Assembly (NCBI RefSeq): GCF_902713615.1
Contig: NC_052171.1
Coordinates: 19,379,952 to 19,443,951, forward strand
Origin: Scyliorhinus canicula
Lineage: Eukaryota
DNA length: 64,000 nucleotides
Direction of reading: 5' to 3'
In this document: piece by piece, positions 19,601 through 62,915 of the stretch
Numbering within the stretch: position 1 is the first letter of the stretch
Layout: each line of letters opens with the position of its first letter
The notes under the pieces: generated by a model
The model's database searches: none
What the model was told of the DNA's origin: nothing
What the model saw: the letters and a program-made list of their open reading frames with translations, nothing else
Position numbers and translations under genes: made by a program

Positions 19601-22600
19601 CGTCTCCACCCTCTCTCCGTCTCCACCCTCTCTCCGTCTCCACCCTCTCTCCGTCTCGACCCTCTCTCCGTCTCCACCCTCTCTCCGTCTCCACCCTCCC
19701 TCCCTCCGTCTCCACCCTCCCTCCGTCTCCACCCTCCCTCCATCTCCACCCTCTCTCCTGCTAATGCAAATAGAACATAGAACATAGAACAGTACAGCAC
19801 AGAACAGGCCCTTCGGCCCTCAATGTTGTGCCGAGCTATGATCACCCTACTCAAACCCACGTATCCACCCTATACCCGTAACCCAACAACCCCCCCTTAA
19901 CCTTACTTTTATTAGGACACTATGGGCAATTTAGCATGGCCAATCCACCTAACCCGCACATCTTTGGACTGTGGGAGGAAACCGGAGCACCCGGAGGAAA
20001 CCCACGCACACAGGGGGAGGACGTGCAGACTCCACACAGACAGTGACCCAGCCGGGAATCGAACCTGGGACCCTGGAGCTGTGAAGCATTTATGCTAACC
20101 ACCATGCTACCGTGCTGCCCCAAATCTGGGGTAGACTGTGACATCTCCGAGTCTCCATTCTGCTGAGCAGAAGACCGTCCTTCCCGGGATTATTTTCTAC
20201 CCGGAACATGTGGAATATTCCTTGTCGCGACAGCAACATGACATCACCAGAATGGCGCAGTGTCATGTGTCCCAGTCTTTGTTTTGTCTGTGACTGTTGG
20301 CAGAACACAGCACAGCTCTGATATCGACAACCTATCTCCTTTTGTAGAAATTTCCCCATGTGTATGGTCTCTACATCCGGCCCACAAGGTGGTTCCACAA
20401 TCACCAACAAGGCAGGACTGACCTCCAGGTCTGGCTGTGAAATCCAACCCACTTTCAGCTTTAATAAGAAACATTCATGCAGAGATTTCCGAGGTACAGA
20501 ACTTACATTGAGCAACACTTCACCCATTCACCCGTGCAGCGACAATTCTGACAGTCTGAGTTTCTCCAGGAATCCCCGACGTCACACAATGATCCATCTT
20601 GACATTGACATTTCTTTGATGCTGGAATTCCAATTGGATTTGGAGAGGAGAGTGATGAGAGAAAAGGGGAAAGAGATTGACATTAGTCTGTCACTGTCAC
20701 ATCAAAGTCTGAAGAAGTATAATGGGGCAACTTTGACCTTTGTGCTTTGGAAGGATTGCCTGGGCAGCTGGATCAGTTTAATGTCCATCCCTGGGCTCCC
20801 TGGATCTGGGAAGAGCCAAGTTCCTTTTCCAGGAGGATCCATCCCTCAGTACTTGACTGAAGCTGGAATCTCCTTTGTATTCAACGGACAAGCCTTCGGC
20901 CCCTGGAGCAGGAGCTTGCTGGTTCGGCAATGCGGAATATTGGCCCATTTCTTCCCAGAGCCTCGCGGGAGGGGAGGACGTGAAAGTCAATCCCTGAGGG
21001 AAGGCTCCATGTGGCTTGGGGGGGATCGTTTGAGAGGCCGGGCCTCCACCATGATATCATTGGGGTCTGCAGCCATTGACCACTCAGCTGGTGAGGTTGG
21101 GCGGTCAATTCCCAGACTTTGCTCATGTCCCCACCCAGAGGGAGTCTAGGGTTTGGAAAGGTTGAGTAGGTACCTCGATTAGAGTCTGTCTGACGTTCCT
21201 TTTGACAGGCTGATTCTCCATGTCCCACAGCCAGGAGCAGAAGGGTAACGCACACCAAGACTTTCTGTTGGGTTAGGTTGGAGGTGGAGGGAATGAAGAG
21301 AGAACACATTGAGGAATTAACTCATTCACTCAGTTTACAGTCATTCCCAATCGTTATCATTCAGAGCGTTGCTCAAGAAACCACCCAGAGAATTCCAGAG
21401 GCAATTGGGAACATTTCTTGTGGCGAGGATTGTGGGATAAGGTTTGCATGACCAGTCAAAGAGCGAGTGGAACAAGGAATCTATTTCTCAATCCTTTTTT
21501 AAAAATATTTTTATGAGGGCTTTGTCATTTCATTGTGAATTTTAAATAACGAGTCAGGACCAACACACGTATTTACAAACTTGTACATCAACTGTGGTTC
21601 AGGCAGTCATTTGGAAGCAAATTGTCCTGTGGCATTATAGAAATGTTCAGTCTACAGGACGCTTCCAGATGGAGAAGGTGGTGGCAGATCAGGGTGGTAG
21701 ATATGTGATTGTGACGGGGTGCTGGAGGGGAGATTAGTGGCGCTGTTAAGTGTATATGGTCCCAATTGGGACGATGTGGGATTTGCGAAGAAGGTGTTTG
21801 GGGCCATTTCCGACTTGGACACACACGAGCTGATTGTGTGGGGGGGGGGACTGGAACTTGGTGTAGGAGCCAAGGTTGGACAGATCACGGCCGGGCTCGC
21901 TGGTCCCATCTGGGGGGGGGGGGGCTAATGGTGGCAAAGGGAGGTTCCTGCATCCAAGGGAACGGGAGTACTCGTTTTTCTCAGCAGTCCATAAGGTATA
22001 CTCGCGAATCGACATTTTTATGGTGGGAAAGGCTTTGCTGGCTGGGGCAAAGGGGTCGGAATACTCTGCAATTGCAGGGTCAGATCATGCTCCGCATTGG
22101 GTGGATATGGTACTGGAGAAGGGGGTCGCGCAGAGGCTGGGGTGGAAATTAGATGTGAGACTTTTGGGGGACCAAGGGTTCTGTGACAAAATTGAAAAGG
22201 TAATTGAGGAAGATGTAGGTTTCAGCTTTACGGGTGAGGTGTCGAAGGCAGTTGTCTGGGAGGCTCTAAAGGCGGTGGTGAGGGGGGAGGTGATTTTGTT
22301 TAAGGCCAGGGTGGACAAAGAGGAGAGGTTGGAGCGGCAGAGGGTAATAGAACAAAGAACAAAGAACATTACAGCACAGGAACAGGCCCTTCGGCCCTCC
22401 CAGCCTGCGCCGATCCAGATCCTTTATCTAAACCTGTCTCCTATTTTCCAAGGTCTACTTCCCTCTGTTCCCCGCCCATTCATATACCTGTCTAGATGCC
22501 TCTTAAATGATGCTATTGTGCCCGCCTCTACCACCTCCGCTGGTAAAGCGTTCCTGGCACCCACCACCCTCTGCGTAAAAAACTTTCCACGCACATCTCC

Positions 22601-35200: not shown

Positions 35201-38200
35201 TCACTTTGATTCTGCCTCTGTGAACAGGGTCACAAAGGGGTTGCCGTGTCGGGAGTCAGACACCGTGTCGTCCTGCTCTCCCGGATCCAACACCCTTGTG
35301 TGGATCAGGCATGCTATTTTGGAGTTGTGTGACCGGGGGTCACTCTCGTCATTGCGGACAAGTCTGTAGGAATTGTCCCTGTGCCATTGTGTAGCGTCGA
35401 GTGTGTTGTCGGGGTAGTCGGGGTCGGGTGGTGGTTCTGGATATTTGAGGTAGGTGACTTCCATGGGGTCACTGGAGTCGGGGTCGTAGTTGGTGCAGTG
35501 TGGGCTGTATGGCTGTGTGGTGTCGCTGTCTTCAGAGTCAGTGTCTGTCCTACTGTCTCTGCTGTGGCAGCTTGTGGGCGTGTCGGGGCGTGGTCTGTAG
35601 TGGTCTGTGGGCGGAGTCGTGGGCGAGTCCGTGGATGAACTGGTCTGTGAGGGGGATGGTGGAAAAGTGTCTCTGGTGGGCGGGGTGAAGTGTTCTGCTG
35701 CATCCAGCAGGACATGGTGAGCATGGTTGGCCTGTGTTCCATATGCCTTTAACTGGTTTATATGGAACCACGCGGTCTTTCCATTAGGATACTTTATTCT
35801 GTAAACGGAGGGGCTAATTTTGTCCGAAATTGAGTAGGGACCGGAATATTTTGGAGCCAAAAAACTGCTGGGGTTATAAACAGATAACATTACCTGTTGC
35901 CCAACCTGGAATTCTGTGGTGTGTACGGTCTTATTGAAACAGGCAGTCCGTTGCTGTCGGCGTTTCCCTAGCTGGACTGCGGCTGCGAGCTGTGCAGACC
36001 TCACAGTCTCAACTAGATCTTTAACTGCCTTTTCATGTGTGAGGGCCGTCACTTCGGGGCTTGTCATGTCCAGTCCTAAAAGGAATTCTGTACCTTTCAT
36101 AGGGCGTCCGGTCATGAGTGTGTGTGGTGTGTATCCTGTCGATGTGGAGACAGTGTTCCTTATGAACATAAGTGCAAATGGGAGCACTGAATCCCATGTG
36201 GAATTGTTCTCTTGAACCATTTTCCTAAGGGTAGTTTTTAGGGTCCGATTCATGCGCTCCACAATCCCGCTGGACTGTGGATGATACGCAATATGGAAGT
36301 TCTGTTTGATTCCGAATATTGTCAGGACGTTCCTCATGACCCGTCCTGTAAAGTGAGATCCCTGGTCCGAATCGATACTTCGGGGTAAACCCCATCTCGT
36401 GAAGATGTGGTGGGTCAGGATCTTTGCAGCTGTCTTTGCTGTATTTGTTCGTGAGGGAAATGCCTCTACCCACTTGGTAAAGGTATCTATCACCACCAGA
36501 ACGTATTTATAGCCATTCCGACAAGGGGGCAATGGACCTATAAAGTCGATCTGGAGGTTTGTCCAAGGGCCGTTAACTGGGCGAGTATGCCGAAGTTGTG
36601 CCTTCTTAGAATACCTCTCCGGGTTATTCTGAGCACAAATCAGGCAATTCTCTATGTAGTGCGTTACATCATTCCTGAGATTAGGCCACCAACAGAGTTG
36701 CCTGAGGTGCCTCGTTGTTGCATCAATTCCCTGATGCCCGTGTCCGTCATGGAACAAGGCAATCATCTGATTCCTGTCCTGCTGTGGGACCACATAAAGT
36801 TGGTCCTTAATGATCACACCCTCATGTGTGGTCAGTGCGTGTTTAAAGTGCTCGTAAGCAGGCACAAAGTTTCCCTTGAAAACCTCCCTGAGGTCTCCGT
36901 CCTGTTTCTGTGCTGCCACGAGGTCTTTAATATCAGTCTGTGAGACTTGTACTGCGCTCACAGGGGCGCTAGCTGGTGCGCTAGCTGGGGGGGTCCATAA
37001 GTGTCCTCTCCTGGAACCTGCCTTAGCCAACGCGTCGGCTTTTACATTCCCAGGGGGTGATGACCTATGGTGGCTTCGAACTTTTATAATGCCGAAGGTC
37101 CTGTCCTTCGCTTTCTCTAGGATATGCTGGAGTAAGGGGGCTGATGGAAGGGGTTTTCCGTCTGCGGAGACAAAACCTCGTGTCCTCCACAGGGGCAGAA
37201 AATCTGTCAGGCTATTGCAGACATATAAGCTGTCTGAATATATGTCTGCTGGGCTGGGGAAAGAATCGGGGTGGTCCACTATGTACGCTATGGCTGCTAG
37301 CTCTGCTGCCTGCGCGCCTAAGTGACCTGGTAACTTAAGAGCTATCTCTTCGAGAGCGCGCCCCTGCGCGTCCTCTACATAGATGCCGCATCCTGTGATA
37401 CGCTCACCATTTAAAACTGTGGAGGAACCGTCTACATAAATCCTCAAGGGTCCACACGTGTCTGTGGGCTGGGGGCTTTGTTTTGGGTTCCCTATCTTCC
37501 TGGGGGGTGTTTTGGCTAAAAAGGGTCCTGTGTTATGCAGGGGAGCTACAATTTCACAGTCATGGGGCTGTCCGGGGTATTGGAGGTTGTCTGCTAAGTA
37601 TGTGTGTGTGCGTGTCCGTTTTACAGTAATGTCCCGTCCTTGTAAAAGTAGGGTCCACCTAGCTGCCCTAATCTGGCTAACTGAACCGTCCTTCAGTCGA
37701 CCGTCTAGTAGTAGCTGTGTGGGTGTATGTTCGGTCAGAATAGTAATGGGGTTGAGTCCGGTGATGTATGAGAAATACTGCACTGCCCAGAAGACAGCAA
37801 GGAGGTGCCTCTCACAGGCCGAAAATCCTTGTTCTACTGGGTCTAACAGTCGGGAGGCATAAGCCACTGGTCTTAGCTGCTCGTGCCGTTCCTGAAGCAA
37901 CACGGCCGAGAGGGTCAGATCTGTGCTAGCTACCTCTATTGCGAAAGGGGAAAGTGGGTCGGGGACTAGCAGCGCGGGTGCTGCACTAAGGGCTCGTTTC
38001 AACTCTTCCACAGCGCCTGTATGCTGCGGAAGCCATTCCCAGGGGGCTCCTTTCTTAAGGAGGTCTGAAAGTGGGGCGGCTTTTGTCGCGAATCCGTCTA
38101 TGTGGTTCCGACAATAGCCAACCAGTCCTAAAAACGACCGGAGGGCTGAAACATTCTGGGGAAGGGGCAATTTGACGATCGAATCAATTCTTTTGAATTC

Positions 38201-39427
38201 GATCTCGCGTTTGCCGTGCGTGATGACTGTTCCCAAATACATCACTTTACTTTCCAATATTTGGGCCTTTTTCGGGTTAACTTTACAGCCAATTTCAGTT
38301 AAGAGTTCCAGGAGTTCGGCCAGAAGCGAAATGTGCTCTGCCTTTGTGTCTGTCTGCAGTAGTAGGTCGTCTACATACTGTACCAGACATTCGGGTCGGG
38401 AAAATTTTTCTAATCCACTTGCCAGCTGTCGGTGGAAAATGGAGGGTGAATTGTGGAATCCTTGTGGGAGGCATGTCCACGTGTACTGCTGAGTTTTAAA
38501 AGTGAATGCGAATTTGTATTGGCACGCTTTTGCCAATGGTATTGACCAGAATCCATTACTGATGTCCAATACCGTGAAGTACTTGGCGTTGAGACCCTGT
38601 TTGAGCATGGTCTCGGGACTAGTAGCTACCGTTGGGGCTACTGCGGGGGTTACTTTGTTGAGTTCCCGATAATCGATGGTCAGACGCCATGATCCATCGG
38701 GCTTCCTCACTGGCCAAATAGGGGCATTGTTGGTGGAGGCTACCGTTCTCAGTACACCTTGGTCCAACAAGCTGCCTATAACTTTTTCTATTTCCACCTC
38801 TGCTTCAAGGGGAAATCGGTATTGCTTTTGCGGTCGGGGGTCCTGTCCGGTAACATGAACTTGTCCAGTCATTCTGCCACAGTCATGACGGTGACTTGCA
38901 AATGCTGTCCTGTGTTTGTTTAGTAGGGCCTTAATTTGTCTGTCGGTGTGGAGTGTAGTCAGGTCGAATGAGTACTCTCCCACTGCGCTAATCCGATTAG
39001 CGTAGTCTCCTACTGTGAGGGTGGCTGGGGCTCTGTCTGATCTCGCCATTCGCCAGACACACTGGTTCACTGGGTCGAACGACAAGCTGTGAGCGTTCAT
39101 AAAATCTATCCCCAGGATGTGCTCTGCTGTCCGGGGAAGATTTACTAAAACTACGGGGTGTCTTGTGGAAATGTTCCCTAGCTGGATCGCTACGGGTGCT
39201 GTGATATGTCCCTGCTGCGAGTGTCCGGTGAACCCGCTAAGTGTGATGGTGGAGGTGGTCGGCCACGTGTCTGCGTGTGCCGTGGTTGTGGAGTTAATGG
39301 TGGTGCGGGATCCTCCTGTGTCCCACAGTAACTCTATGGGCTTCCCTTTGACTTTTGCCGTGACTACGGGCCTCCCTGATGAGTCCCATAGTGTGTCACA
39401 GACCCAAGTGGGGGAGCCCGAACACCG
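35201..39427 (-). CDS. pol: Pol (PR-RT-tether-RNase H-IN), 1408 aa, in frame with gag
   Basis: PR LWDTGG...ILGIDF lies upstream of the ORF-track ATG with no intervening stops. RT LPQG/YVDD. Degenerate RH tether. Second RH YVDGSS/AELAA/YSDS/GNVKAD. IN HHCC, D-D-E and GPY motifs. Confidence 0.95.
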   Translation of the reverse strand, partial: RCSGSPTWVCDTLWDSSGRPVVTAKVKGKPIELLWDTGGSRTTINSTTTAHADTWPTTSTITLSGFTGHSQQGHITAPVAIQLGNISTRHPVVLVNLPRTAEHILGIDFMNAHSLSFDPVNQCVWRMARSDRAPATLTVGDYANRISAVGEYSFDLTTLHTDRQIKALLNKHRTAFASHRHDCGRMTGQVHVTGQDPRPQKQYRFPLEAEVEIEKVIGSLLDQGVLRTVASTNNAPIWPVRKPDGSWRLTIDYRELNKVTPAVAPTVATSPETMLKQGLNAKYFTVLDISNGFWSIPLAKACQYKFAFTFKTQQYTWTCLPQGFHNSPSIFHRQLASGLEKFSRPECLVQYVDDLLLQTDTKAEHISLLAELLELLTEIGCKVNPKKAQILESKVMYLGTVITHGKREIEFKRIDSIVKLPLPQNVSALRSFLGLVGYCRNHIDGFATKAAPLSDLLKKGAPWEWLPQHTGAVEELKRALSAAPALLVPDPLSPFAIEVASTDLTLSAVLLQERHEQLRPVAYASRLLDPVEQGFSACERHLLAVFWAVQYFSYITGLNPITILTEHTPTQLLLDGRLKDGSVSQIRAARWTLLLQGRDITVKRTRTHTYLADNLQYPGQPHDCEIVAPLHNTGPFLAKTPPRKIGNPKQSPQPTDTCGPLRIYVDGSSTVLNGERITGCGIYVEDAQGRALEEIALKLPGHLGAQAAELAAIAYIVDHPDSFPSPADIYSDSLYVCNSLTDFLPLWRTRGFVSADGKPLPSAPLLQHILEKAKDRTFGIIKVRSHHRSSPPGNVKADALAKAGSRRGHLWTPPASAPASAPVSAVQVSQTDIKDLVAAQKQDGDLREVFKGNFVPAYEHFKHALTTHEGVIIKDQLYVVPQQDRNQMIALFHDGHGHQGIDATTRHLRQLCWWPNLRNDVTHYIENCLICAQNNPERYSKKAQLRHTRPVNGPWTNLQIDFIGPLPPCRNGYKYVLVVIDTFTKWVEAFPSRTNTAKTAAKILTHHIFTRWGLPRSIDSDQGSHFTGRVMRNVLTIFGIKQNFHIAYHPQSSGIVERMNRTLKTTLRKMVQENNSTWDSVLPFALMFIRNTVSTSTGYTPHTLMTGRPMKGTEFLLGLDMTSPEVTALTHEKAVKDLVETVRSAQLAAAVQLGKRRQQRTACFNKTVHTTEFQVGQQVMLSVYNPSSFLAPKYSGPYSISDKISPSVYRIKYPNGKTAWFHINQLKAYGTQANHAHHVLLDAAEHFTPPTRDTFPPSPSQTSSSTDSPTTPPTDHYRPRPDTPTSCHSRDSRTDTDSEDSDTTQPYSPHCTNYDPDSSDPMEVTYLKYPEPPPDPDYPDNTLDATQWHRDNSYRLVRNDESDPRSHNSKIACLIHTRVLDPGEQDDTVSDSRHGNPFVTLFTEAESK

Positions 39428-41176
39428 TCAGTTCGTCTCGTCCACATTGGTGGGTCCTGACTGTACTGCTACATTGTGGATGGGTTTTGCTTTGTTGCGG
39501 TTCAGAGTGCCTGTCTGCTGGCCTCTCTGAGATCGCTGGGGTGCATTACACTCTTTTGCCCAATGCCCTAACTGTCCACAGTTATAGCATTCCTGTCCTT
39601 TCTGCTGAGGGCTGCTCTTGCCTTCATTTACCCATGCGGGCTTCTGGTGCTCTCTGACTGCTTGGATATCTGCAGCAGTCTGAGCCTCTTCTGGGGATCT
39701 AACTTTTCCTTTTGCCTGAAGCGATTGCTCCCAAGCGCGGGACAATCTTTTGAGGACCCATTTTTCGTTATGGGCCTCTTCTGAGGGGTCATAACTATTG
39801 CAAGCGCTCTGTCCTGCTTCTGTTGCGTGTGAGATAATTGTGCGCGTCCACTTAACCATGTTTTCGCGGGTTAAATGCGCTCTATCTAGCTGTCCGAAAA
39901 CTGCGCTGAAATGAATCCACAGCCTTCCTGCGAATGCTGTGGGGTGTTCGGATCTCTTCTGCCTGCACTTATTCAATCCTTCTACGGGGTCACCTCTATT
40001 GTACCCGATGGCATCTAAAATGGCAGTGTGCATCTCCTCTAGGCTGCCTCCTGCCACGTTCTGTGGGTCGGGGAGGGCTGCCACTACACTCTGGTCTAAG
40101 CTCAGCACGGTGAGCTTAACCTGCTCTCTCTCATCCAGGCCGTACATGGTAGCCTGCTGTTTTACTTTAGCGAAAAACTGGTGGGGGTCTGCGGTGGGGA
40201 GGAACGGAGTGATCTTTTCACAAGCGTCCCTTAGCTGGGTTACTGTTAAAGGGGTGGTGTAAGTTATGTCTGGGGCGCCTTCTGATTCGGCTTTCCTCTG
40301 TGTGGTTACGGGATTCATGGGTGCGGTTATGGTCTGAGCTGTGGGGGGTTGGGGTGCCTGTCGTTTCTGCTGAGCTGCTGGCGCACATGTTCCCTGAACA
40401 TAACGCTGCGCTGTCTCGCTTAATTCCTGCCAATCTGGGGCGTTTTCCCCATCTAACTGAGCTCCAAAGGTGCTTTGGAAGCCATTCTGCACCGAAAGCA
40501 GAGATTGCAGTTCCGCAATCTGTTTCCTGCATTTCGCGTGGTCAACTGTGCTTTGTCTTTGTTCGGTCGTTGCAGCGTGGAGTGCTCTCAAAGCTGCTTT
40601 GAGATCCGAACATTGCCTCTGCAATGCCTCCACCTGCTTTTCCGATTCCTGTCTTATCAGAACGGCACGTTGCACGTCCTGATAGGCTTTCTCATACTGG
40701 GTCTGGGAACTGTTCAGATGAGCTAGACAAGACTGGTGAGCCCTCTTGGCATCATCCACCTCTCTACCCTTCTCTGCCAACTTCCCTTTAAGATCCAGGT
40801 TTTCTTTCTCGATGTCCCTGACATCGACCTTACTCATTCGGTTCCTTTCCTCTAAATCTGCCCGGAGCGTCCTGATGACCTCCTCTGCGCCTCGCAACTG
40901 TGCCAAGCAGGACACAATCGCCATCGGCTTGCGTGCTTTTCCTAAACTCTTTTTGTGTATTTGAGAGAGGTTCTCCCACCAAGTATGACCTATACTCCCG
41001 GGACCTGTCTCCTCATTTGCACAAAACTCTTTCCAAAGGGGCCATCCCTTTCCTTGTAAATATTTGCGGAGTTCCAGCTCCCACGTGGGACACTGGCCTA
41101 CCCTGCTACTGCTGCTGGTCGCTGCGACCACAAACTTTGCTGGATCCATCAGACGTTCCATTGCCTGCATGGCCAT
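39428..41176 (-). CDS. gag: Gag, 582 aa
   Basis: Long heptad-rich N-terminal region, MHR-like QKRSEHPTAFAGRL and CCHC knuckle CYNCGQLGHWAKEC. Confidence 0.92.
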   Translation of the reverse strand: MAMQAMERLMDPAKFVVAATSSSSRVGQCPTWELELRKYLQGKGWPLWKEFCANEETGPGSIGHTWWENLSQIHKKSLGKARKPMAIVSCLAQLRGAEEVIRTLRADLEERNRMSKVDVRDIEKENLDLKGKLAEKGREVDDAKRAHQSCLAHLNSSQTQYEKAYQDVQRAVLIRQESEKQVEALQRQCSDLKAALRALHAATTEQRQSTVDHAKCRKQIAELQSLLSVQNGFQSTFGAQLDGENAPDWQELSETAQRYVQGTCAPAAQQKRQAPQPPTAQTITAPMNPVTTQRKAESEGAPDITYTTPLTVTQLRDACEKITPFLPTADPHQFFAKVKQQATMYGLDEREQVKLTVLSLDQSVVAALPDPQNVAGGSLEEMHTAILDAIGYNRGDPVEGLNKCRQKRSEHPTAFAGRLWIHFSAVFGQLDRAHLTRENMVKWTRTIISHATEAGQSACNSYDPSEEAHNEKWVLKRLSRAWEQSLQAKGKVRSPEEAQTAADIQAVREHQKPAWVNEGKSSPQQKGQECYNCGQLGHWAKECNAPQRSQRGQQTGTLNRNKAKPIHNVAVQSGPTNVDETN

Positions 41177-41471
41177 TTCCTCTGACTCTCTTTTTATAAT
41201 TTGGAACAGGGGGTTGCTGGGGTGGTGTTTCGAGAAACGGGTACGGCTTACGCTATTTTCCGATCACAAAACTACCGAAAGTTTGTCGCAACAAAAAGCT
41301 TTCAGTTTTACCTTACAGCCCTGTTAGTACGCATGCACTAAACACACTTCCGAATTTCGCTTATTATTTTGAACACCTTGAATACTTGTGATCTCTTTCT
41401 TTCTCTGCAATTTGGAGTTCTAATTCAAATTTCAGGGTCCTGGACACTGTGGTGTTTCCACTTACAACAGG

Positions 41472-41490
41472 GTCCCGGCGGATGTCGCCA
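41472..41490 (-). promoter_or_regulatory. Putative primer-binding site TGGCGACATCCGCCGGGAC
   Basis: TGG-initiated, 5 nt downstream of the 5' LTR; cognate tRNA not identified. Confidence 0.55.
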
Positions 41491-41495
41491 CTAAA

Positions 41496-42444
41496 TGTTG
41501 CACGTTTTACTATGGGCGTAAAACGCGTTTATTGGAGTGTATTAACACGCCTCCGAGTTCGACGTGTGCTTAACACTGCTAGGCTCTGTTCTATGTAATT
41601 ATTTAGCTCTGGAGTCGCCAGTTGCCGTATAGGCAACGTCACAAGTATTCCAAGGTCAAGTTCAAAGTAATAAAGACGATACACCGATTAGTAAAGTTCA
41701 AACGATCAATATTTATTATACAGTTAATAATAAATACTCATGCACACACTAAGAGACTAAGCTACAACTAAACATAAGCAAACAGAATACTTATCTAACA
41801 GGAACAGGCAAGGTCAGAGAACGAGGCCTTCGTCCTGGTTTTGTCTGCAGCCTTCAGCAAGCGTTCTGGTACTTGGGAGTCTAGTGGGCTTGGATCGCGT
41901 AGCGAGCGTTGAACTTACGGTTTCGGCGGCTGGTGCTCAACGGCTGGAGTCAGGATGCCAGGTGTCAGTCGGAGCCGGAGCACGGGTTTAACAGACCGGA
42001 CAACACGAGGTCCCTATCTTTTATAGGGGTTCCGTTGTCCTTCCCTCTTCTCGGGCGGGCTCTACCTATTGGATCAATTTCTTATCGATACTGGATTAAT
42101 TCCCCAATGCGAGGGGGTCTCCGTGATGGAGGGGGCGTTTCTTATGTCCTTTTGTTTGGAGGTTTCTGGTGCCTCGATGTCTGGGTCTTGATTGGAATGT
42201 GTCCATTCAGAACCAAATGTATCTATTGTGTGGGTGTTCAAGTCTGATGGCCTCATTAGCATGCAAAGCGTTTTGCCATTTGCACCTAGCTAAGGTCTTT
42301 TCACCTGAGCCCAAACTGGTTTCTGCTGCTGCAGAATGCAAACTGCTCTTTGCAGACTGCTGTTCTGGCTAAACTGTCTGTTTCCCAGCAGCCTTCCATT
42401 TTAGTTTGGCTCAGTGTCCATTTTGCGTGGCCAGCATGGCTACA
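41496..42444 (-). repeat. 5' LTR
   Basis: TATAAAA 42019-42025, splice donor GTAAGT at 41918, AATAAA 41712-41717. Confidence 0.95.
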
Positions 42445-42676
42445 GTATGGAGTTTGCACATTCTCACCGTGTTTTTTTTAATTGAGCCGAAATTTGTGGC
42501 TCAGCGTTCTGACACGATATGGTTGGACTGTCTGTCAAAATTTCCAGAGGAATTAAATAGGGCTAGTCATTTAACTAAAGAGCATTTAAAAATTGTCACA
42601 GCATGTGATGAAAAAGAGGTCTTGTACATCATCGGACCAGGTGACCATGGCAATATTTTGATATATTTGGTATATC

Positions 42677-43007: not shown

Positions 43008-44016
43008 ATTATGCTGAGACCATCTGCTCTTTTTATTCTGTCATTGTTGGGAGACACCGACCTCAATGGAGACGGGCAGGTTGAAACATAAACCATTTAT
43101 TGTTAATCCAGAATTATGTACACATCCCAGGTACGGGCAGTAAGGGTGCTGTGTACGCTCAGTCTCCACAGTCTACTGCCATGTAACTCTCTGTATCATA
43201 CCGTGGCTGGTACTGTTCACCAATCCCGCAGTAACCCTTTGCCAACAACCCCCTCATCCAATCTCCAAACCGCTCACTGAACGGGGCCCACCTCAATGTC
43301 AGATCTATCAGATGTGGAGCGGGGTCCAAGATAACGATCGTGGAGTATTCTGCTTTCCTCACCCCAGGAAGAAGAGATCTCCACGCCATGAAGAGGACAG
43401 TGAATGTTGGTTTTTAAAACTATTCTCTGTGTCATTAAGGGACAGCAGCATTGTTATTGGTGTTTAAGGCAATCAGCAGAGCAAGGGTTGGTGATCCAAG
43501 GTATGACGTGGAGAGTTACATGGCAGCAGACTGTGGAGACAGCAACAGTACTGTCCGTACCTGGGATCTGTGTATGGTTCTGGATTAACTATAAATGGTT
43601 TATGTTTAAACCTTCACATCTCCAAAGGAAGGAACACATAGGGACAACATGTCCAGGTACAGCGTGAATGCTTCCCATCAATTTCTCCTCCGGCCGACTT
43701 GGCTTCAATTCCTTTCCCTCTCCTTGTCCTCTCCGTGTGGTTCTGGATTCTGATCAGTGAATCATTCTTTATCCTTGAAGGCTTTCAGCACTCAACCTCC
43801 CAAAGACCAATGGGTCGCCTATCCACATGGACAAATTCAGACATTCTCACACCCACTCTCTCTGCAATGTGCCCTCACACACACACTCTCTCTCTCTCTC
43901 TGTCACACTCTTTTATATTCTCAATTCGACTCTCTTGTCTGCACACTGGCACACACACAAACATTTCTTGTTGAAATGATGGATGAGATTTGAGAATTGA
44001 ACCACTGTGAGATATC

Positions 44017-44022
44017 TTTACT
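44017..44022 (-). terminator. Variant polyadenylation signal AGTAAA of gene B (gene C: 59305-59310)
   Basis: Aligns with AATAAA of gene A in the conserved 3' UTR context. Confidence 0.5.
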
Positions 44023-44103
44023 GTGATATACATGTTTGATGGAGAAAGAGAGCTCCCCCATTCTCCCTTTGTACTTTGATCTGCCGTGATTATGATGCTT
44101 TTC

Positions 44104-44233
44104 TTATTTCCCAACACTGTGATGCACCCCACATTCGATGGAAGAATCATTCCTCAGATGGACTCTGTAGCGACAGCTCTGACGGTCAAAGAATGCGATA
44201 CAGTCATCTGAGTAACCAGATGGTATGCCGTAC
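44104..44233 (-). CDS. msmb: MSMB-like gene B exon 4
   Basis: GGCAG| acceptor; YGIPSGYSDDC...GK*. Confidence 0.93.
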
Positions 44234-47200
44234 CTGCCGACACAGAGGAATAAGGCATCAGAAATACCCCGGAGGTAATGACCACAGTTCCCCTGTACAG
44301 TTTCACTGGACAATTTCACCAGCGACTCCGATCAAGTGAACAACCAGAATTGAGAAAATTCCTTCTTTACCCACAATGCACCAGCTGCACCCTGAGAAGC
44401 CAATTACAGATGGGCAAAAGCAGAGAAGGGATTTATCATGGGGCACCTCCACCTTTACTCCATGTTCACTCTTTCTCCATCTCCACCCTCTCTCCATCTC
44501 CACCTTCTCTCCATCTCCACCTTCTCTCCATCTCCACCATCTCTCCATCTCCACCCTCCCTCCATCTCCACCCTCCCTCCATCTCCACCCTCCCTCCCTC
44601 CATCTCCACCCTCCCTCCGTCTCCACCCCCCCTCCATCTCCACCCTCTCCACCCTCCCTCCATCTCCACCCTCCATCTCCACCCTCCCTCCATCTCCCTC
44701 CCTCTATCCCCACCCTCTCTCCATCTCAACTGTCTCTCCATCTCCACCCTCCCTCCATCTCCACTCTCCCTCCATCTCCACCCTCCCTCCATCTCCACCC
44801 TCCCTCCATCTCCACCCTCCCTCCCTCCATCTCCACCCTCCCTCCATCTCCCTCCCTCCATCTCCCTCCCTCCATCCCCACCTTCTCTCCATCCCCACCT
44901 TCTCTCCATCCCCACCTTCTCTCCATCTCCACCCTCTCTCCATCTCCACCCTCCCTCCATCTCCACCCTCCCTCCATCCCCACCCTCCCTCCACCTCCAC
45001 CCTCCCCGTCTCCACCATCCATCTCCACCCTCCCTCCATCCCCACCCTCCCTCCATCCCCACCCTCCCTCCATCTCCACCCTCCCTCCATCTCCACCCTC
45101 CCTCCATCTCCACTCCCTCCATCTCCCTCCCTCTATCCCCACCCTCTTTCCATCTCAACTCTCTCTCCATCTCCACCCTCCCTCCATCCCCACTATCCCT
45201 CCATCACCCTCTCTCCATCTCCACCTTCTCTCCATCTCCACCCTCCCTCTGTCTCCACCCTCTCTCCCTCCATCTCCACCCTCCCTCCATTTCCACCCTC
45301 CCTCCACCTCCCTCCCTCCATCCCCACCTTTTCTCCATCCCCACCTTCTCTCCATCCCCACCTTCTCTCCATCTCCACCCTCCCTCCATCTCCACCCTCC
45401 CTCCATCTCCACCCTCTCTCCATCTCCACCTTCTCTCCATCTCCACCCACTCCCTCCGTCTCCACCCTCTCGCCACCCTCTCTCCCTCCATCTCCACCCT
45501 CCCTCCCTCTCTTCATCCCTTCATCTGTTCATTCTCTACACTTCCTTCATCTATTCACTCTCTTCATCTACCCTCCCTTTCCATCTACACTCCCTCTTCA
45601 TCGGCACGCTCTCTCGTGATCTCCGCCATCACTTCCTCCACATCCTCTGTAGTTCCGCGCCCTCTTTTTTAAAATATAAATTTAGAGTACCCACTTAATT
45701 TTTTCCAATTAAGGGGCAATTTAGCGTGGCCAATCCACCTAGCCTGCACATCTTTTGGGTTGTGGGGGTGAGACCCACGCAAACACGGGGAGAATGTGTA
45801 AACTCCACACGGACAGTGACCCAGAGCCAGGCTCGAACCTGGGTCCTCGGCGCAGTGAGGCTGCAGGGCTAACCCACTGAGCCACCGTGCTACCCGACAC
45901 TCTAAGATTCATCAGTCCCAAACACGTATGTCATGGTAACTGACCATGGACATTTATTGGAAATCTTTCCAATTCTTTGGAAATGGGAATAAAGTGTTTT
46001 AATAAGAAAGGGGATGTAGTCTTCTGTCTTCGCGAGCTAACAGAATGACATCACCAGAGGGAGTGTGCCTAACGTGACCCAGTCTTGGTTTGCCTTTTGC
46101 CTGTGAGCAGAGCTCTGACCCCTTCATTCATAATAAATGCTCTCATGTTCCGGGTCTCGATGTGTGGACCCTCAACGTGGGAACGCAATCCCTTCTGTGG
46201 GATTTCTTTCTGCGATGAGATCAGCACGACAGGACTGACCTCCAGGTCTGGCTGTTATATCAAACCCACTTTGTGCTTTCATAAGAAGGATCAAGACAGG
46301 GTAGCATGGTGGTTAGCATAAATGCTTCACAGCTCCAGGGTCCCAGGTTCAGTTCCCGGCTGGGTCACTGTCTGTGCGGAGTCTGCACGTCCTCCCCGTG
46401 TGTGCGTGGGTTTCCTCCGGGTGCTCCGGTTTCCTCCCACAGTCCAAAGATGTGCGGGTTAGGTGGATTGGCCGTGCTAAATTGCCCGTAGTGTCCTAAA
46501 AAGTAAGGTTAAGGGGGGGGATTGTTGGGTTACGGGTATAGGGTGGATACGTGGGTTTGAGTAGGGTGATCATTGCTCGGCACAACATCGAGGGCCGAAG
46601 GGCCTGTTCTGTGCTGTACTGTTCTATTCTATTCTATCACACAATGGACTGACTCCAGGTGGAGTGGCAGAGAATCACTTACATTGTGCAGCATGACATT
46701 GATTCAGCGGAGCACTCACACCTCATGCAGTCAGTGTTTCTCCAGGTTTCACCAAGCTCATGCCAGGTGCCATCAACGTCATCTTTACATTTTCTTGTTA
46801 CTGGAGCGAGAGTGAGTGAGCGAGAGAGAAAGAGGGAGAGAGAGAGGTTAGTCTGTCACTGTCACATCAAAGTCTGAAGAAGTATAATGAGGTAACTTTA
46901 ACCTTTGTGCTTTGGAAGGATTGCCTGGGCAACTGGCTCAGTTTAATGTCCATCACCGGTCTCTCTGGACCTGGGACGAGCCAGGTTCCTTTTCCAAGAG
47001 GATCTGTCCCTGAGAGTTTGACAGGGTGAATCTCGGAACGCTAAGGCTGCCAGGTCACTCATTCCTGGCTGGCCCTTCTGGATGGGCATGGGTTAAAGGT
47101 CAGGAGCCCAATGTGCTGGAAGGGTGTTTCCGTGGTTACCACAATGAGCCCTCGGCCTGTCTGCAGGCCGCGCCCTCGCTTGTATTCGACAGCCAAGCTG

Positions 47201-50200
47201 AGGCGATGGAGCAGGAGCTCGCGAGTTGGGCAAGGCGGAATATTGGCCCACTCCTTCCTGAATCCTCGGGGAAGAGGAGAGCGTGAAAGTCAATCCCATG
47301 TGGCTTGAAGCATTTATGTCGATGCTTACCTCGCAACCCCACACCCCCATCCCCACACCCCCATCCCAGATAGAGGTTGAGATTGGAAAGGTTTCAGGTC
47401 TTACTTTCATTTGGGACTTGCTGAGGAGAAACGTAGCAGGATGATTCTGCATCGTCCACAGCCAGGAGCAGGAGAGCAACGCACACCAAGGACTTCTGTC
47501 GAATTGGTGTCAGGTGGGAGGTGAGCGAATAAGTGGAGAACATGTTGAGGAATTCAGTTTGGTCAATCATGTCATGGTCAGATGCGAAAGATTTAAAAAA
47601 AAATATGTTAATCAGCTGAACCACTCCTCAGAGTATCAATGCACTTATCCAGCAATAACCTGCTCACGGACACTCAGTTTGGGTTCCGTCAGGGTCACTC
47701 AGCTCCTGACCTCATTGCAGCCTTGGTTCAAACATGGACAAAAGAGCTGAATGCCAGGGGCGAGGTGAGTGACTGCCCTTTGACATCAAGGCAGCATTTG
47801 ACCGAGTGTGGCATCAAGGAGCCCGAGCTAAACTGGAGTCAATGGGAATCCGGGGGGAAAACTCTCCACTGGTTGGAGTAATTCCTGGCACAAAGGAAGA
47901 TGGGTGTGGTGGATGGAGGTCGATCATCTCAGCTCCAGGACATCACTGCAGGAGTTCCTCAGGGTCGTGTCCTAGGCCCAACCATCTTCAGCTGCTTCAT
48001 CAATGACCTGCCTTCCTTCATAAGGTCAGAAGTGGGGGTGTTTGCAGACAATAATGGAGCAGTCCATGTCCAAATGCAGCAAGACCTGGACAATATCCAG
48101 GCTTGGGCTGACAAGTGGCAAGTTACATTCGCACCACACAAGTGCCAGGCAATGACCATCTCCTACATGAGAGGATCTAACCATCACCCCTTGACATTCA
48201 ACAGCATTACCATCACTGAATCCACCACAATCAACATCCTGGGGATTACCATTGATCAGAAACTGAACTGGACTAGCCATATTCATACTGTGGCTACCAG
48301 GGCAGGTCAAAGCTTCGGACTGCTACAGAGAATAACTGCCCTCCTGACCACCCCCCCCCCCCCCTCTCCAAAGCCTGTCCACCATCTACACGGCACAAGT
48401 CAGGAGTGTGATGGAATACTCTCCACTTGCCTGGATGAGTGCAGCTCCAACAACACTCAAGAAACTCAGCACCATCCAGGACAAAGCAGCCCCGCTTGAT
48501 TGCTCCCCTTCCACAAACATTCAAACCCTCCACCACCGACGCACAGTGGCAGCCGTGTGTACCATCTACAAGATGCACTGCAGCAACTCACTGAGGTTCC
48601 TGAGGCAGCACCTTCCAAACCCACGGCCACTACCATCTAGAAGGACAAGAGCAGCAGATACCTGGGAACCCCACCACCTGGAGGTTCCCCTCCAAGTCAC
48701 TCACCACCCTGACTTGGAAATAAATCGGCCGCTCCTTCACTGTCGCTGGGGCAACATCCTGGAACTCCCTCCCTAACAGCACAGTGGGTGTACCTACGCC
48801 ACAAGGACTGTGGCGGTTTAAGAAGGCAGCTCACCACCACCTTCTGAAGAGCAACTAGGGATGGGCAATAAATGCCGATCCAGCCAGCGACACCCACATC
48901 CCGTGAATGAATTTTTAAAAAGGAAACAATAGAAAATGGCTGAGCTATCAACCTGGCTTCAGCTGGTCACCTGATACCTTGAAGCATTGTTCAAGGTAAC
49001 AAGGGCCACGAGGGATGGGAAATGTGGCATAACTAACTCTAGACAAAGGAAAACCTTCACAGCTCACCGTCTCCCATCATAGTGCCAATGGCCAAAGTAT
49101 TAGCAATCGGAACACAGTGGTCTCGACAAAGAGAGAGTCAGTTAAATTAACCCAACAACGTGCCTTCTCCTTCCGTGCCAGCCTCACTCTGGAAAGATGG
49201 GGGCCGGGGGGGGGGGGGGGGGGGGGGGGGGGGACAGTCTGCCACCAGCCAACCACCCGGTGGAAGGAACATTCCGGTTGACTCAGGATTCTGGACTCTG
49301 GACACATGGAAAACCCATAATGGTTATCTTGGCCGATCCCTGAACACTCTTCTATTCTCCTTATCTCTCATTCACTGTGTGGGTGTACAAGGGTGGATGT
49401 TGCACAGCAGCTCACGCATGCGCACACGTGTGTCTACATATGTGTGTGTGTGTGTTGTGGGGGGGGGGGTCTGTGTCATTGAGGATTGGAACATTTTGAA
49501 TTTTCCCGTACCAGCCCCCCCGAACAGGCACCGGAATGTGGTGACTAGGGGCTTTTCACAGTCACTTTTTGTGACAATAAGCGATTTTCATTTCATTTAA
49601 GGATTGGGGAAATTGGCCACCATTTACAGAGAGAGGAATCCAAATAAGAGAGAACACCTTCCAGTTTTTGGGAGAATGGGAACATCAGGACAGTTTAAGC
49701 TTACACCTCCTGCTGCCCATGTCACTCAGTTTACAGTCATTCCCAATCCGATACAAGCTGTCACTCTGAATGTTACTCAATAAACCACCCAGAGACAATT
49801 GGATAGACTTGGAACCCATTTCTCAATCCTGATGTTACAAACTCATCACCATGACCAAAACCAATTGTCGACGCTGACATCTCAGCTCAAAGACTCCACA
49901 GGATTGGACGCAGGACGTGACGTGTCTATTGAGACATCAGCATTCCTGGGAGCGAGTCCCAATACTCCAGAATTGCAATGGAGAGTCCAGGAATGGGTCT
50001 CATGGATAAACCATGAAATAATGTTGTTGCAGATGCCAGTAGTAGTCAGCTGCGCTTTTCCCTGTGGCCATTAGGAATTAGATTGAGCTTTAAGTTTAAT
50101 TTACACGTCTCCTTTGTAGGTTTGAAAGGTGAAGGCTGGGGTGGTTTCATTGTGAAGAGGAGGCAGCAGCTGTTTGTGTCTCACACAATATAACACCCAG

Positions 50201-51497: not shown

Positions 51498-51682
51498 TGG
51501 GGCTGGTTTAGCTCACAAGGCTAAACCGCTGGCTTTTAAAGCAGACCAAGCAGGCCAGCAGCACGGTTCGATTCCCGTACCAGCCTCCCCGGACAGGCGC
51601 CGGAATGTGGCGACTAGGGGCTTTTCACAGTAACTTCATTGAAGTGTATTCGTGACAAAAAGCGATTTTCATTTTTTCATTT
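51498..51682 (+). mobile_element. Short tRNA-derived SINE
   Basis: A box TAGCTCACAAGG, B box GGTTCGATTCCC; absent from the duplicate at ~53215. Confidence 0.8.
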
Positions 51683-58495: not shown

Positions 58496-59391
58496 GGCCC
58501 TTCAAATCCTTCTGCAAAATCCCAAGTCTGCCAACAACACTTCGTCCAATTACCACACCGCACACGAAACTGGGCCCACCTCAATGTCAGATCTACCAGA
58601 TGTGGAGCGGGGTCCAAGATAACGATCGTGGAGTATTCTGCTTTCCTCACCCCAGGCAGAAGAGATCTCCACGCCATGAAGAAGACGGTGAATGTTGGTT
58701 TTTAAAACTATTCTCTGTGTCATTAAGGGACAGCAGCATTGTTATTGGTGTTTAAGACAATCAGCAGAGCAAGGGTTGGTGATCCAAGGTATGACGTGGA
58801 GAGTTACATGGCAGCAGACTGTGGAGACAGCAACAGTACTGTCCGTACCTGGGATCTGTGTATGGTTCGGGATTAACTATAAATGGTTTATGTTTAAACC
58901 TTCACATCTCCAAAGGAAGGAACACATAGGGACAACATGTCCAGATACAGCGTGATTGCTTCCCATCAATTTCTCCTCCGGCCGACTTGGCTTCAATTCC
59001 TTTCCCTCTCTTTGTCCTCTCCGTGTGGTTCTGGATTCTGATCAGTGAATCATTCTTTATCCTTGAAGGCTTTCAGCACTCAACCTCCCAAAGACCAATG
59101 GGTCGCCTATCCACATGGACAAACTCAGACATTCTCACACCCACTCTCTCTGCAATGTGCCCTCACACACACACTCTCTCTCTCTCTCTGTCACACTCTT
59201 TTATATTCTCAATTCGACTCTCTTGTCTGCACACTGGCACACACACAAACATTTCTTGTTGAAATAATGGACGAGATTTGAGAATTGAACCACTGTGAGA
59301 TATCTTTACTGTGATATACATGTTTGATGGAGAAAGAGAGCTCCCCCATTCTCCCTTTGTACTTTGATCTGCCGTGATTATGATGCTTTTC

Positions 59392-59521
59392 TTATTTCCC
59401 AACACTGTGATGCACCCCACATTCGATGGAAGAATCATTCCTCAGATGGACTCTGTAGCGACAGCTCTGACGGTCAAAGAATGCGATACAGTCATCTGAG
59501 TAACCAGATGGTATGCCGTAC
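59392..59521 (-). CDS. msmb: MSMB-like gene C exon 4
   Basis: Same translation as gene B exon 4. Confidence 0.92.
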
Positions 59522-62500
59522 CTGCCGACACAGAGGAATAAGGCATCAGAAATACCCCGGAGGTAATGACCACAGTTCCCCTGTACAGTTTCACTGGACA
59601 ATTTCACCAGCGACTCCGATCAAGTGAACAACCAGAATTGAGAAAATTCCTTCTTTACCCACAATGCACCAGCTGCACCCTGAGAAGCCAATTACAGATG
59701 GGCAAAAGCAGAGAAGGGATTTATCATGGGGCACCTCCACCTTTACTCCATGTTCACTCTTTCTCCATCTCCACCCTCTCTCCATCTCCACCTTCTCTCC
59801 ATCTCCACCTTCTCTCCATCTCCACCATCTCTCCATCTCCACCCTCTCTCCATCTCCACCCTCCCTCCATCTCCACCCTCCCTCCCTCCATCGCCACCCT
59901 CCCTCCGTCTCCACCCCCCCTCCATCTCCACCCTCTCCACCCTCCCTCCATCTCCACCCTCCATCTCCACCCTCCCTCCATCTCCCTCCCTCTATCCCCA
60001 CCCTCTCTCCATCTCAACTGTCTCTCCATCTCCACCCTCCCTCCATCTCCACTCTCCCTCCATCTCCACCCTCCCTCCATCTCCACCCTCCCTCCATCTC
60101 CACCCTCCCTCCCTCCATCTCCACCCTCCCTCCATCTCCCTCCCTCCATCTCCCTCCCTCCATCCCCACCTTCTCTCCATCCCCACCTTCTCTCCATCCC
60201 CACCTTCTCTCCATCTCCACCCTCTCTCCATCTCCACCCTCCCTCCATCTCCACACTCCCTCCATCCCCACCCTCCCTCCACCTCCACCCTCCCCGTCTC
60301 CACCATCCATCTCCACCCTCCCTCCATCCCCACCCTCCCTCCATCCCCACCCTCCCTCCATCTCCACCCTCCCTCCATCTCCACCCTCCCTCCATCTCCA
60401 CTCCCTCCATCTCCCTCCCTCTATCCCCACCCTCTTTCCATCTCAACTCTCTCTCCATCTCCACCCTCCCTCCATCCCCACTATCCCTCCATCACCCTCT
60501 CTCCATCTCCACCTTCTCTCCATCTCCACCCTCCCTCTGTCTCCACCCTCTCTCCCTCCATCTCCACCCTCCCTCCATTTCCACCCTCCCTCCACCTCCC
60601 TCCCTCCATCCCCACCTTTTCTCCATCCCCACCTTCTCTCCATCCCCACCTTCTCTCCATCTCCACCCTCCCTCCATCTCCACCCTCCCTCCATCTCCAC
60701 CCTCTCTCCATCTCCACCTTCTCTCCATCTCCACCCACTCCCTCCGTCTCCACCCTCTTGCCACCCTCTCTCCCTCCATCTCCACCCTCCCACCCTCTCT
60801 TCATCCCTTCATCTGTTCATTCTCTACACTTTCTTCATCTATTCACTCTCATCATCTACCCTCCCTTTCCATCTACACTCCCTCTTCATCGGCACTCACT
60901 CTCGTGATCTCCACCATCTCTTCCTCCACATCCTCTGTAGTTCCACGCCCTCTTTTTTAAAATATAAATTTAGAGTACCCACTTAATTTTTTCCAATTAA
61001 GGGGCAATTTAGCGTGGCCAATCCACCTAGCCTGCACATCTTTTGGGTTGTGGGGGTGAAACCCACGCAAACACGGGGAGAATGTGTAAACTCCACACGG
61101 ACAGTGACCCAGAGCCAGGCTCGAACCCGGGTCCTCGGCGCAGTGAGGCTGCAGGGCTAACCCACTGAGCCACCGTGCTGCCCGACACTCTAAGATTCAT
61201 CAGTCCCAAACACGTATGTCATGGTAACTGACCATGGACATTTATTGGAAATCCTTCCAATTCTTTGGAAATGGGAATAAAGTGTTTTAATAAGAAAGGG
61301 GATGTAGTCTTCTGTCTTCGCGAGCTAACAGAATGACATCACCAGAGGGAGTGTGCCTAACGTGACCCAGTCTTGGTTTGCCTTTTGCCTGTGAGCAGAG
61401 CTCTGACCCCTTCATTCATAATAAATGCTCTCATGTTCCGGGTCTCGATGTGTGGACCCTCAACGTGGGAACGCAATCCCTTCTGTGGGATTTCTTTCTG
61501 CGATGAGATCAGCACGACAGGACTGACCTCCAGGTTTGGCTGTTATATCAAACCCACTTTGTGCTTTCATAAGAAGGATCAAGACAGGGTAGCATGGTGG
61601 TTAGCATAAATGCTTCACAGCTCCAGGGTCCCAGGTTCAGTTCCCGGCTGGGTCACTGTCTGTGCGGAGTCTGCACGTCCTCCCCGTGTGTGCGTGGGTT
61701 TCCTCCGGGTGCTCCGGTTTCCTCCCACAGTCCAAAGATGTGTGGGTTAGGTGGATTGGCCATGCTAAATTGCCCGTAGTGTCCTAAAAAGTAAGGTTAA
61801 GGGGGGGATTGTTGGGTTACGGGTATAGGGTGGATACGTGGGTTTGAGTAGGGTGATCATTGCTCGGCACAACATCGAGGGCCGAAGGGCCTGTTCTGTG
61901 CTGTACTGTTCTATTCTATTCTATCACACAACGGACTGACTCCAGGTGGAGTAGCAGAGAATCACTTACATTGTGCAGCATGACATTGATTCAGCGGAGC
62001 ACTCACACGTCATGCAGTCAGTGTTTCTCCAGGTTTCACCAAGCTCATGCCAGGTGCCATCAACGTCATCTTTACATTTTCTTGTTACTGGAGCGAGAGT
62101 GAGTGAGCGAGAGAGAAAGAGGGAGAGAGAGAGGTTAGTCTGTCACTGTCACATCAAAGTCTGAAGAAGTATAATGAGGTAACTTTAACCTTTGTGCTTT
62201 GGAAGGATTGCCTGGGCAACTGGCTCAGTTTAATGTCCATCACCGGTCTCTCTGGACCAGGGACGAGCCAGGTTCCTTTTCCAAGAGGATCTGTCCCTGA
62301 GAGTTTGACAGGGTGAATCTCGGAACGCTAAGGCTGCCAGGTCACTCATTCCTGGCTGGCCCTTCTTGGATGGGCGTGGGTTAAAGGTCAGGAGCCCAAT
62401 GTGCTGGAGGGGTGTTTCCGTGGTTACCACAATGAGCCCTCGGCCTGTCTGCAGGCCGCGCCCTCGCTTGTATTCGACAGCCAAGCTGAGGCGATGGAGC

Positions 62501-62782
62501 AGGAGCTCGCGAGTTGGGCAAGGCGGAATATTGGCCCACTCCTTCCTGAATCCTCGGGGAAGAGGAGAGCGTGAAAGTCAATCCCATGTGGCTTGAAGCA
62601 TTTATGTCGATGCTTACCTCGCAACCCCACACCCCCATCCCCACACCCCCATCCCAGATAGAGGTTGAGATTGGAAAGGTTCAATTCTTACTTTCATTTG
62701 GGACTTGCTGAGGAGAAACGTAGCAGGATGATTCTGCATCGTCTACAGCCAGGAGCAGGAGAGCAACGCACACCAAGGACTT
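59392..62782 (-). CDS. msmb: Beta-microseminoprotein-like gene C, partial, join(62692-62782,61970-62087,59392-59521); exon 1 expected beyond the window
   Basis: Protein identical to gene B except DCMRC->DCMTC; one synonymous change in exon 2; splice sites intact. Confidence 0.93.
59759..60808. repeat. 17-bp minisatellite in intron 3 of gene C
   Basis: Near-identical to 44471-45520. Confidence 0.95.
60953..61183 (-). mobile_element. tRNA-derived V-SINE, short subfamily
   Basis: Duplicate of 45665-45895. Confidence 0.8.
61585..61923 (+). mobile_element. HE1/V-SINE-type SINE
   Basis: Duplicate of 46297-46636. Confidence 0.9.
61970..62087 (-). CDS. msmb: MSMB-like gene C exon 3
   Basis: 118 nt with AG/GT boundaries. 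Confidence 0.94.
62692..62782 (-). CDS. msmb: MSMB-like gene C exon 2
   Basis: 91 nt with AG/GT boundaries. Confidence 0.92.
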
Positions 62783-62915
62783 CTGTCGAATTGGTGTCAG
62801 GTGGGAGGTGAGCGAATAAGTGTAGAACATGTTGAGGAATTCAGTCTGGTCAATCATGTCATGGTCAGATGTGAAAGATTAAAAAAAAATATATGTTAAT
62901 CAGCTGAACCACTCC

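Follow-up and report, generated by a model that had tools for sequence, protein, structure and literature searches.

Readthrough of the stop codon between gag and pol is established for the gammaretroviral gag-stop-pol layout and is inferred for others (PMC13517186; this and the other papers given by PMC number are cited for the accessible parts of their text). In MuLV it sets the Gag to Gag-Pol ratio, with a UAG followed by G, a purine-rich spacer and an H-type pseudoknot (spacer of 8 nucleotides (nt); PMC3159437). Among retroviruses, a UGA in this position is likewise already known in kind. It separates gag and pro, in frame, in the fish and amphibian retroviruses SSSV (UGAAGA), ZFERV (UGACGA) and a cane-toad endogenous retrovirus (ERV; UGAAGU), all epsilon-related (PMC13517186, section 4.1.2), and in XtERV-S, which is ERV-L-like and has a YIDD motif (PMC8278194); the accessible texts describe no 3′ structure for these four. 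The fungal long terminal repeat (LTR) retrotransposon Tca2 of Candida likewise has a UGA between gag and pol and a 3′ structure, as far as the accessible source goes. Type II readthrough signals are defined by UGACGG or UGACUA (PMC13517186, section 2.1) and occur in VEEV and coltivirus (section 4.2), and stems begin 7–12 nt past the stop in alphaviruses and furoviruses (8–9 nt in VEEV; PMC3159437). Here we describe a gag-UGA-pol junction with the exact type II hexamer in a 9.8-kb endogenous provirus of the catshark Scyliorhinus canicula. The provirus lies on the minus strand at 32633-42444 of the analysed 64,000-nt stretch (contig NC_052171.1, positions 19,379,952 to 19,443,951; hereafter the window, to which all coordinates refer).

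At the junction we distinguish the following features, with + numbers counted from the stop:
39431..41176, minus strand: gag, 582 amino acids (aa), ATG at 41176, one CCHC zinc knuckle (translation; Pfam zf-CCHC, E 1e-7)
39428..39430, minus strand: UGA, predicted readthrough codon, in the type II hexamer UGACGG (context AAC-TGA-CGG-TGT)
39420..39427, minus strand: 8-nt spacer from the stop to the long hairpin, whose fold begins at +9
39338..39419, minus strand: predicted 82-nt extended hairpin, +9 to +90, with a basal stem pairing +9..+16 (39419-39412) with +82..+90 (39346-39338)
39367..39420, minus strand: 54-nt hairpin (+8 with +61), an alternative fold, mutually exclusive with the 82-nt hairpin
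35201..39427, minus strand: pro-pol frame, 1408 aa, with protease, reverse transcriptase (RT; YVDD), tether, RNase H and integrase (Pfam; translation free of internal stops)

The gag frame (39428-41263) and the pol frame (35201-39427) are one frame with a single stop between them, and Gag-Pol counted from the ATG at 41176 would have 1991 codons if the UGA is decoded. Past the stop, the protease motif DTG comes at codon 36 and the earliest Met only at codon 110; an ATG start therefore cannot yield the whole protease. A preliminary description of this DNA, made from the letters alone, had reported a gag TGA in frame with pol, 109 ATG-free codons holding the protease, and a UGA-CGG context of alphavirus type. 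Frames and translation bear this out, and UGACGG fits the type II definition in section 2.1 of PMC13517186. The programmed readthrough to a 1991-aa Gag-Pol that it proposed is well supported by the conserved stop, by 12 viral loci of 21 with a like layout and by the fact that no alternative route was found. Its contrast with the UAG of gamma- and epsilonretroviruses holds in part: the hexamer was read correctly, but the implied surprise was overstated, because UGA junctions are in print and the element is neither a gamma- nor an epsilonretrovirus. Frameshifting was rejected, since gag and pol share a frame and no slippery heptamer lies within -150..+120 of the stop.

The sequence evidence makes readthrough very likely the best explanation of the junction. 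Most ribosomes would stop at the UGA and release Gag. A minority would decode it via a near-cognate tRNA and make the 1991-aa Gag-Pol, from which the protease would then free the enzymes. For UGA, the usual near-cognate tRNAs are those for Trp, Arg or Cys. We infer that the leakiness comes from the type II UGA-CGG context and that the predicted hairpin, 8 nt after the stop, raises readthrough at the mRNA entrance of the ribosome, as in alphaviruses. Taken as a whole, this explanation, with readthrough from the type II context raised by the 82-nt hairpin, seems to us probable.

Arg-Cys directly follows the UGA both here (39422-39427) and in SSSV (locus L010, 3324-3329), and Gly-Cys directly follows the stop column in locus L002 and in a coelacanth gene model. 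These residues possibly reflect a protease-site or context constraint.

The 82-nt hairpin has a predicted energy of -37.5 kcal/mol (z -3.4 to -3.6). This energy was matched by 0 of 200 dinucleotide shuffles and by 3 of 2000 shuffles that preserve the protein (1 of 300 in another synonymous set), and the fold ranks first among the 1992 windows of 83 nt in gag-pol. With the first 7 nt kept single-stranded, its basal pair has a probability of 0.96-1.00 in windows of up to 300 nt. Its 8-nt spacer places the predicted fold where a type II signal has its extended stem, 7–12 nt 3′ of the stop. In alphaviruses, coltiviruses and furoviruses, an unrelated family, such stems enclose about 100–150 nt and come with synonymous conservation, compensatory changes and assays, whereas here the stem is an 82-nt predicted hairpin. 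MuLV has the same 8-nt spacer, but its UAG-G, purine-rich spacer and pseudoknot contrast with UGA-C, a U/G spacer and a hairpin in the shark. Rfam gave 0 matches at E up to 5, and the folding program models no pseudoknots.

Other copies of the element were judged only from assembled contigs of other sequencing runs. Between 72 and 78% of the sampled words were present in 20 of the 24 listed runs (8 studies). Four runs from four studies (X3, X5, X11, X13) were aligned to the provirus; none of the 24 listed runs is on record as RNA, and contigs drop rare forms. Contig 19 of X3 covers 39123-39751 at depth 129 with 6 differences, contig 25 of X5 covers 38823-39751 at depth 60 with 7, and both retain TGA-CGG; in each run the bin depth over the stop equals the depth of that one spanning contig. 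The differences fall at 39089, 39161, 39168, 39169, 39605, 39679 and 39704, and none is on the stop or in 39338-39430. As the two contigs differ from the provirus at 6–7 sites while the junction is the same, they represent other copies or alleles. X13 and X11 have no listed contig across the stop, and the 40 best-supported differences are all elsewhere. Contigs about 99% identical to the provirus do not vary across the predicted stem arms. The expectation that the TGA is kept in other copies was thus confirmed, and the 3′ region through 39338 is likewise unchanged.

At a greater distance, Gag relatives numbered 4 among 7999 candidates scored, all catshark gene models with 71-78% identity. Three of them (72-76% identical, on contigs of differing length) terminate at the alignment column where the provirus Gag ends, which gives the position of the stop and not its letters; the fourth has an aberrant C-terminus. 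A coelacanth gene model, P0004, reads through with Gln at the stop column, perhaps owing to a sense codon there or to the gene prediction. Judged from these sequences, the TGA is not a private nonsense mutation.

The layout recurs in other retroviruses. In 12 of the 21 viral loci a long gag frame is closed by a single stop, and DTG follows 27–41 codons further on (36 in this provirus); the stop is TAG in 11 and TGA in 1. The gamma-type loci have TAG-G, the gammaretroviral type III context (UAG then G), in contrast to UGA-C here. As control folds, nine other junctions were handled alike, plus locus L096, which we take to be WDSV. L010 was recognised as SSSV by its UGAAGA hexamer. L001 was identified as snakehead retrovirus (SnRV) because it has the UAGGGC hexamer and agrees with P0012 and with the row for SnRV in the supplement of PMC7947760, which P0012 itself matches.

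SnRV has a stem in a similar place. After its UAG (L001:2191-2266) a 7-pair stem is predicted between +9..+15 and +67..+73, and the post-stop window is the best gag-pol locus at 4 of 5 window lengths, in a test that was not fitted to SnRV. A survey of pseudoknots lists none after the SnRV or WDSV stop in its accessible part (PMC3835772). SnRV and the provirus share gag-stop-pol in one frame, one CCHC and a stem predicted from +9. They differ in that SnRV has a UAG-GGC stop context, the two Gags barely align, the two are not sisters in the RT tree and the provirus has no env. The SnRV Gag also has a coiled-coil-like stretch that looks similar to that of the provirus Gag, though the two barely align. 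With windows of 83 nt, the junctions of the four gamma-type loci have ranks of 32-66 among about 1800, which is expected because the folding leaves pseudoknots unmodelled.

Several observations weigh against the proposed role of the 82-nt hairpin, or against generalising it. The window length of 83 nt was picked after the fold was seen; at 50, 65 and 80 nt (starting at +8) 26, 9 and 9 loci, respectively, are better, and the junction is the best locus again at 95 and 110 nt. Viral and metagenome collections contained no nucleotide relative divergent enough for covariation (the alignment scans returned 21, 69 and 6 loci, without a close relative among them), and viral contigs scanned with a single protein yielded no match. 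Beyond the 40 best-supported differences there are 634 lesser variant rows, and a low-depth X13 contig (depth 16) fails to align over 39326-39391. The SnRV stem is lost in windows of 200–300 nt and its register is about 4 nt off the shark stem relative to a shared Gly codon; homology of the two is therefore not shown. No such stem was predicted after the stops of SSSV (L010), WDSV (L096), L011, L022 and L024, so a stem is not needed generally. Finally, in its accessible part PMC13517186 calls the cis elements of epsilon and unclassified fish retroviruses unclear and readthrough there experimentally unverified.

The alternative that survives best is that the UGA-C context alone drives readthrough and that the hairpin arises incidentally from the G+C-rich Gly/Pro codons that encode the N-terminus of the protease. 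SSSV has a UGA (TGA-AGA-TGC) without a predicted stem, its junction window ranking 1050 of 2129, the shark ranks vary with window length, and structures are not consistently needed according to the accessible text of PMC13517186. On the other hand, the protein-preserving shuffles described above match the native energy only rarely, and the SnRV stem is top-ranked at the same offset. We consider this alternative rather unlikely overall and only a little less so once readthrough is granted. With readthrough granted, the folding models moderately favour the 82-nt hairpin as the stimulator.

A second possibility is that the stimulator is the 54-nt hairpin of the preliminary description, formed locally or after a preceding ribosome unwinds the region. 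Its arms and inner helix do exist where they were described, and its 7-nt spacer is inside the known range (furovirus CP; PMC3159437). The fold has a predicted energy of -24.3 kcal/mol. Of 5922 windows in gag-pol, the 54-nt one that starts at +8 has rank 7 and comes second if independent loci are counted. Its basal pair has a probability close to 1 in an RNA that stops at +65 or before, and of 0.94-1.00 in windows from +8 to +61..+70. This falls to 0.20 in a window to +80 and to 0.00 from +90 on. The 54-nt stem is thus the best fold only as long as the RNA ends by +70, and it is displaced by the 82-nt hairpin once +90 is included, when constrained folds put it about 7–9 kcal/mol behind. It also stands out less from shuffled sequence (z about -2.1 to -2.6; its energy is reached by 8 of 200 dinucleotide and 45 of 2000 synonymous shuffles). 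The models therefore suggest that the preliminary pairing is probably wrong and that the shared 5′ arm probably joins the better-supported 82-nt hairpin. A stimulatory role of the 54-nt fold is quite unlikely, and granting readthrough improves its prospects only marginally.

Less likely still is a separate synthesis of Pol in the manner of foamy viruses, by translation of a spliced message or from a non-AUG start, in which case the UGA would be a plain stop. The closest solved structures to this Pol are indeed of foamy virus Pr125Pol (E 1e-55), and contigs can miss minor splice forms. But in foamy viruses pol has its own Met and does not share the frame of gag (L093; PMC8278194), whereas here pol is in the same frame, with no ATG before codon 110. 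No good splice acceptor was found either: no AG has over 8 pyrimidines among the 15 nt before it. Among 7 joints in the contigs of all four aligned runs (not on record as RNA, with rare forms dropping out), 0 linked the leader to pol. Together this makes separate synthesis very unlikely.

The weakest alternative, a nonsense mutation in a once-fused gag-pol frame, is extremely improbable and largely refuted: P0004 has its Gln at the stop column (perhaps through gene prediction or a changed stop), but the stop is kept in other copies and has an equivalent position in relatives that differ by about 25%, no fused Gag-Pol form was found among 8000 longer candidates (a weak search), the LTRs are near-identical and the frames are otherwise unbroken.

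With UGA readthrough aided by the 82-nt hairpin as the preferred reading, the exact type II context together with the predicted extended hairpin, echoed in SnRV, would be a modest novelty. Our literature search, with subscription papers outside its scope, found no described stem at such junctions and no report of the shark family itself, though the SnRV stem may already have been mentioned elsewhere. The accessible parts of PMC5930517 (MuERV-L), PMC10435555 and PMC10699275 contain nothing on the gag-pol junction. The shark locus and SnRV would provide a concrete structure for the question of cis elements left unclear in the accessible text of PMC13517186. For the annotation of such proviruses it would mean that the UGA is to be treated as functional and not as decay. 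We can also imagine, at somewhat less than even chances, that class III/SnRV-related retroviruses have a second kind of retroviral readthrough signal, in which an alphavirus-style extended stem-loop 8 nt past the stop replaces the pseudoknot of gammaretroviruses and stays in position as the stop changes between UAG-G (SnRV) and UGA-C (shark lineage). If true, retroviral Gag-Pol readthrough would span all three Beier-Grimm contexts, because the gag-pol junction of locus L022 matches the type I nonamer exactly.

The L022 junction (L022:2915-2923) is an observation in its own right. The type I readthrough nonamer is that of tobamoviruses; the retrovirus-like gag there has 601 codons with a CCHC, one TAG follows, and pol has 1180 codons with YCDD. 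Section 2.1 of PMC13517186 describes the type I context as absent from animal viruses, and our literature search showed no report of this junction.

The element that carries the shark junction is a young, intact provirus with gag and pol open. Its remaining features are:
41496..42444, minus strand: 5′ LTR, 949 nt, TG...CA (repeat family D11; compared with the 3′ LTR)
32633..33581, minus strand: 3′ LTR, 949 nt, adjoining a copy of the 4-nt target-site duplication
32629-32632 and 42445-42448: 4-nt target-site duplication, at both provirus flanks
41472..41490, minus strand: primer-binding-site-like stretch starting with TGG, 5 nt past the LTR (by position and TGG start)
33582..33593, minus strand: purine-rich tract bordering the 3′ LTR (direct inspection)
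33911..34264, minus strand: 117-aa open reading frame (ORF) at the expected env site, with N-terminal and central hydrophobic stretches (translation)

The LTR pair shows 1 mismatch in 948 compared positions, and the flanks join back into a single copy of the dispersed repeat family D7. LTRs, primer-binding site, polypurine tract, target-site duplication, gag and the protease-RT-tether-RNase H-integrase series are thus present as in a Retroviridae-type provirus. The N-terminal half of Gag is long and coiled-coil-like (about residues 95-235, approximately 40470-40900 on the minus strand). Past the C-terminal domain of integrase, Pol has a tail of about 150 aa rich in Pro, Ser, Thr and Asp (approximately 35204-35650, minus strand), which is missing from the closest relatives. 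No env was found, and no env-sized ORF lies between pol and the 3′ LTR. The 117-aa ORF, which resembles a small single-pass membrane protein sitting in the place of env, had no Pfam match at the cut-off, Atlas matches below 0.9 (leads only) and no tblastx match to 9 retroviral loci.

As to lineage, among named viruses SnRV scores best, with 48% identity in the RT core and 40% across RT and tether, and amphibian, coelacanth and other Pols without names are 53-58% identical. An RT tree was built from 32 rows, after dropping L017, L020, L094, P0018, P0025, P0030, P0031, P0057 and P0093 from 41 as too long or redundant, and had no ERV-L or loki row. In it the provirus is within a 100/100 retroviral clade as opposed to gypsy/caulimo rows, and in an 89/92 group with the amphibian, coelacanth and nameless Pols, apart from SnRV. 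It falls outside a 95/99 clade of SnRV, foamy, epsilon and gamma rows, in which the foamy branch is long. Assignment to the gamma-/epsilonretroviruses (class I) was rejected, as the RT lies outside the 100/99 clade with MuLV and WDSV. Spumaretrovirinae (foamy viruses) were rejected as well: their pol is spliced and has a frame and an ATG of its own, whereas here pol shares the gag frame and has no ATG before codon 110. Lokiretroviruses have an env related to the paramyxovirus fusion protein. A lokiretrovirus was rejected on env (no env-sized ORF) and the RT motif. Two loki RT rows in the PMC7947760 supplement carry PFG as against the retroviral PQG of the provirus, and two provirus RT motifs were not found in loki rows on the first 300 of its 318 pages, where line breaks can hide matches. 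The provirus is best called class III or clade Huo-type, as defined in the accessible part of PMC6001957, an assignment that is unproven. SnRV-related ERVs have been described in the elephant shark (PMC4422223).

Elsewhere in the window, a tandem array of about 3 kb with a 17-nt unit and strong strand skew occupies 16735-19780. A local duplication joins 43254-48804 and 58542-63913 at a spacing of about 15.3 kb, with 96-99% identity in the blocks listed. At 51500-51589 ARAGORN calls a tRNA-Phe(AAA)-like gene, which is probably repeat-derived.

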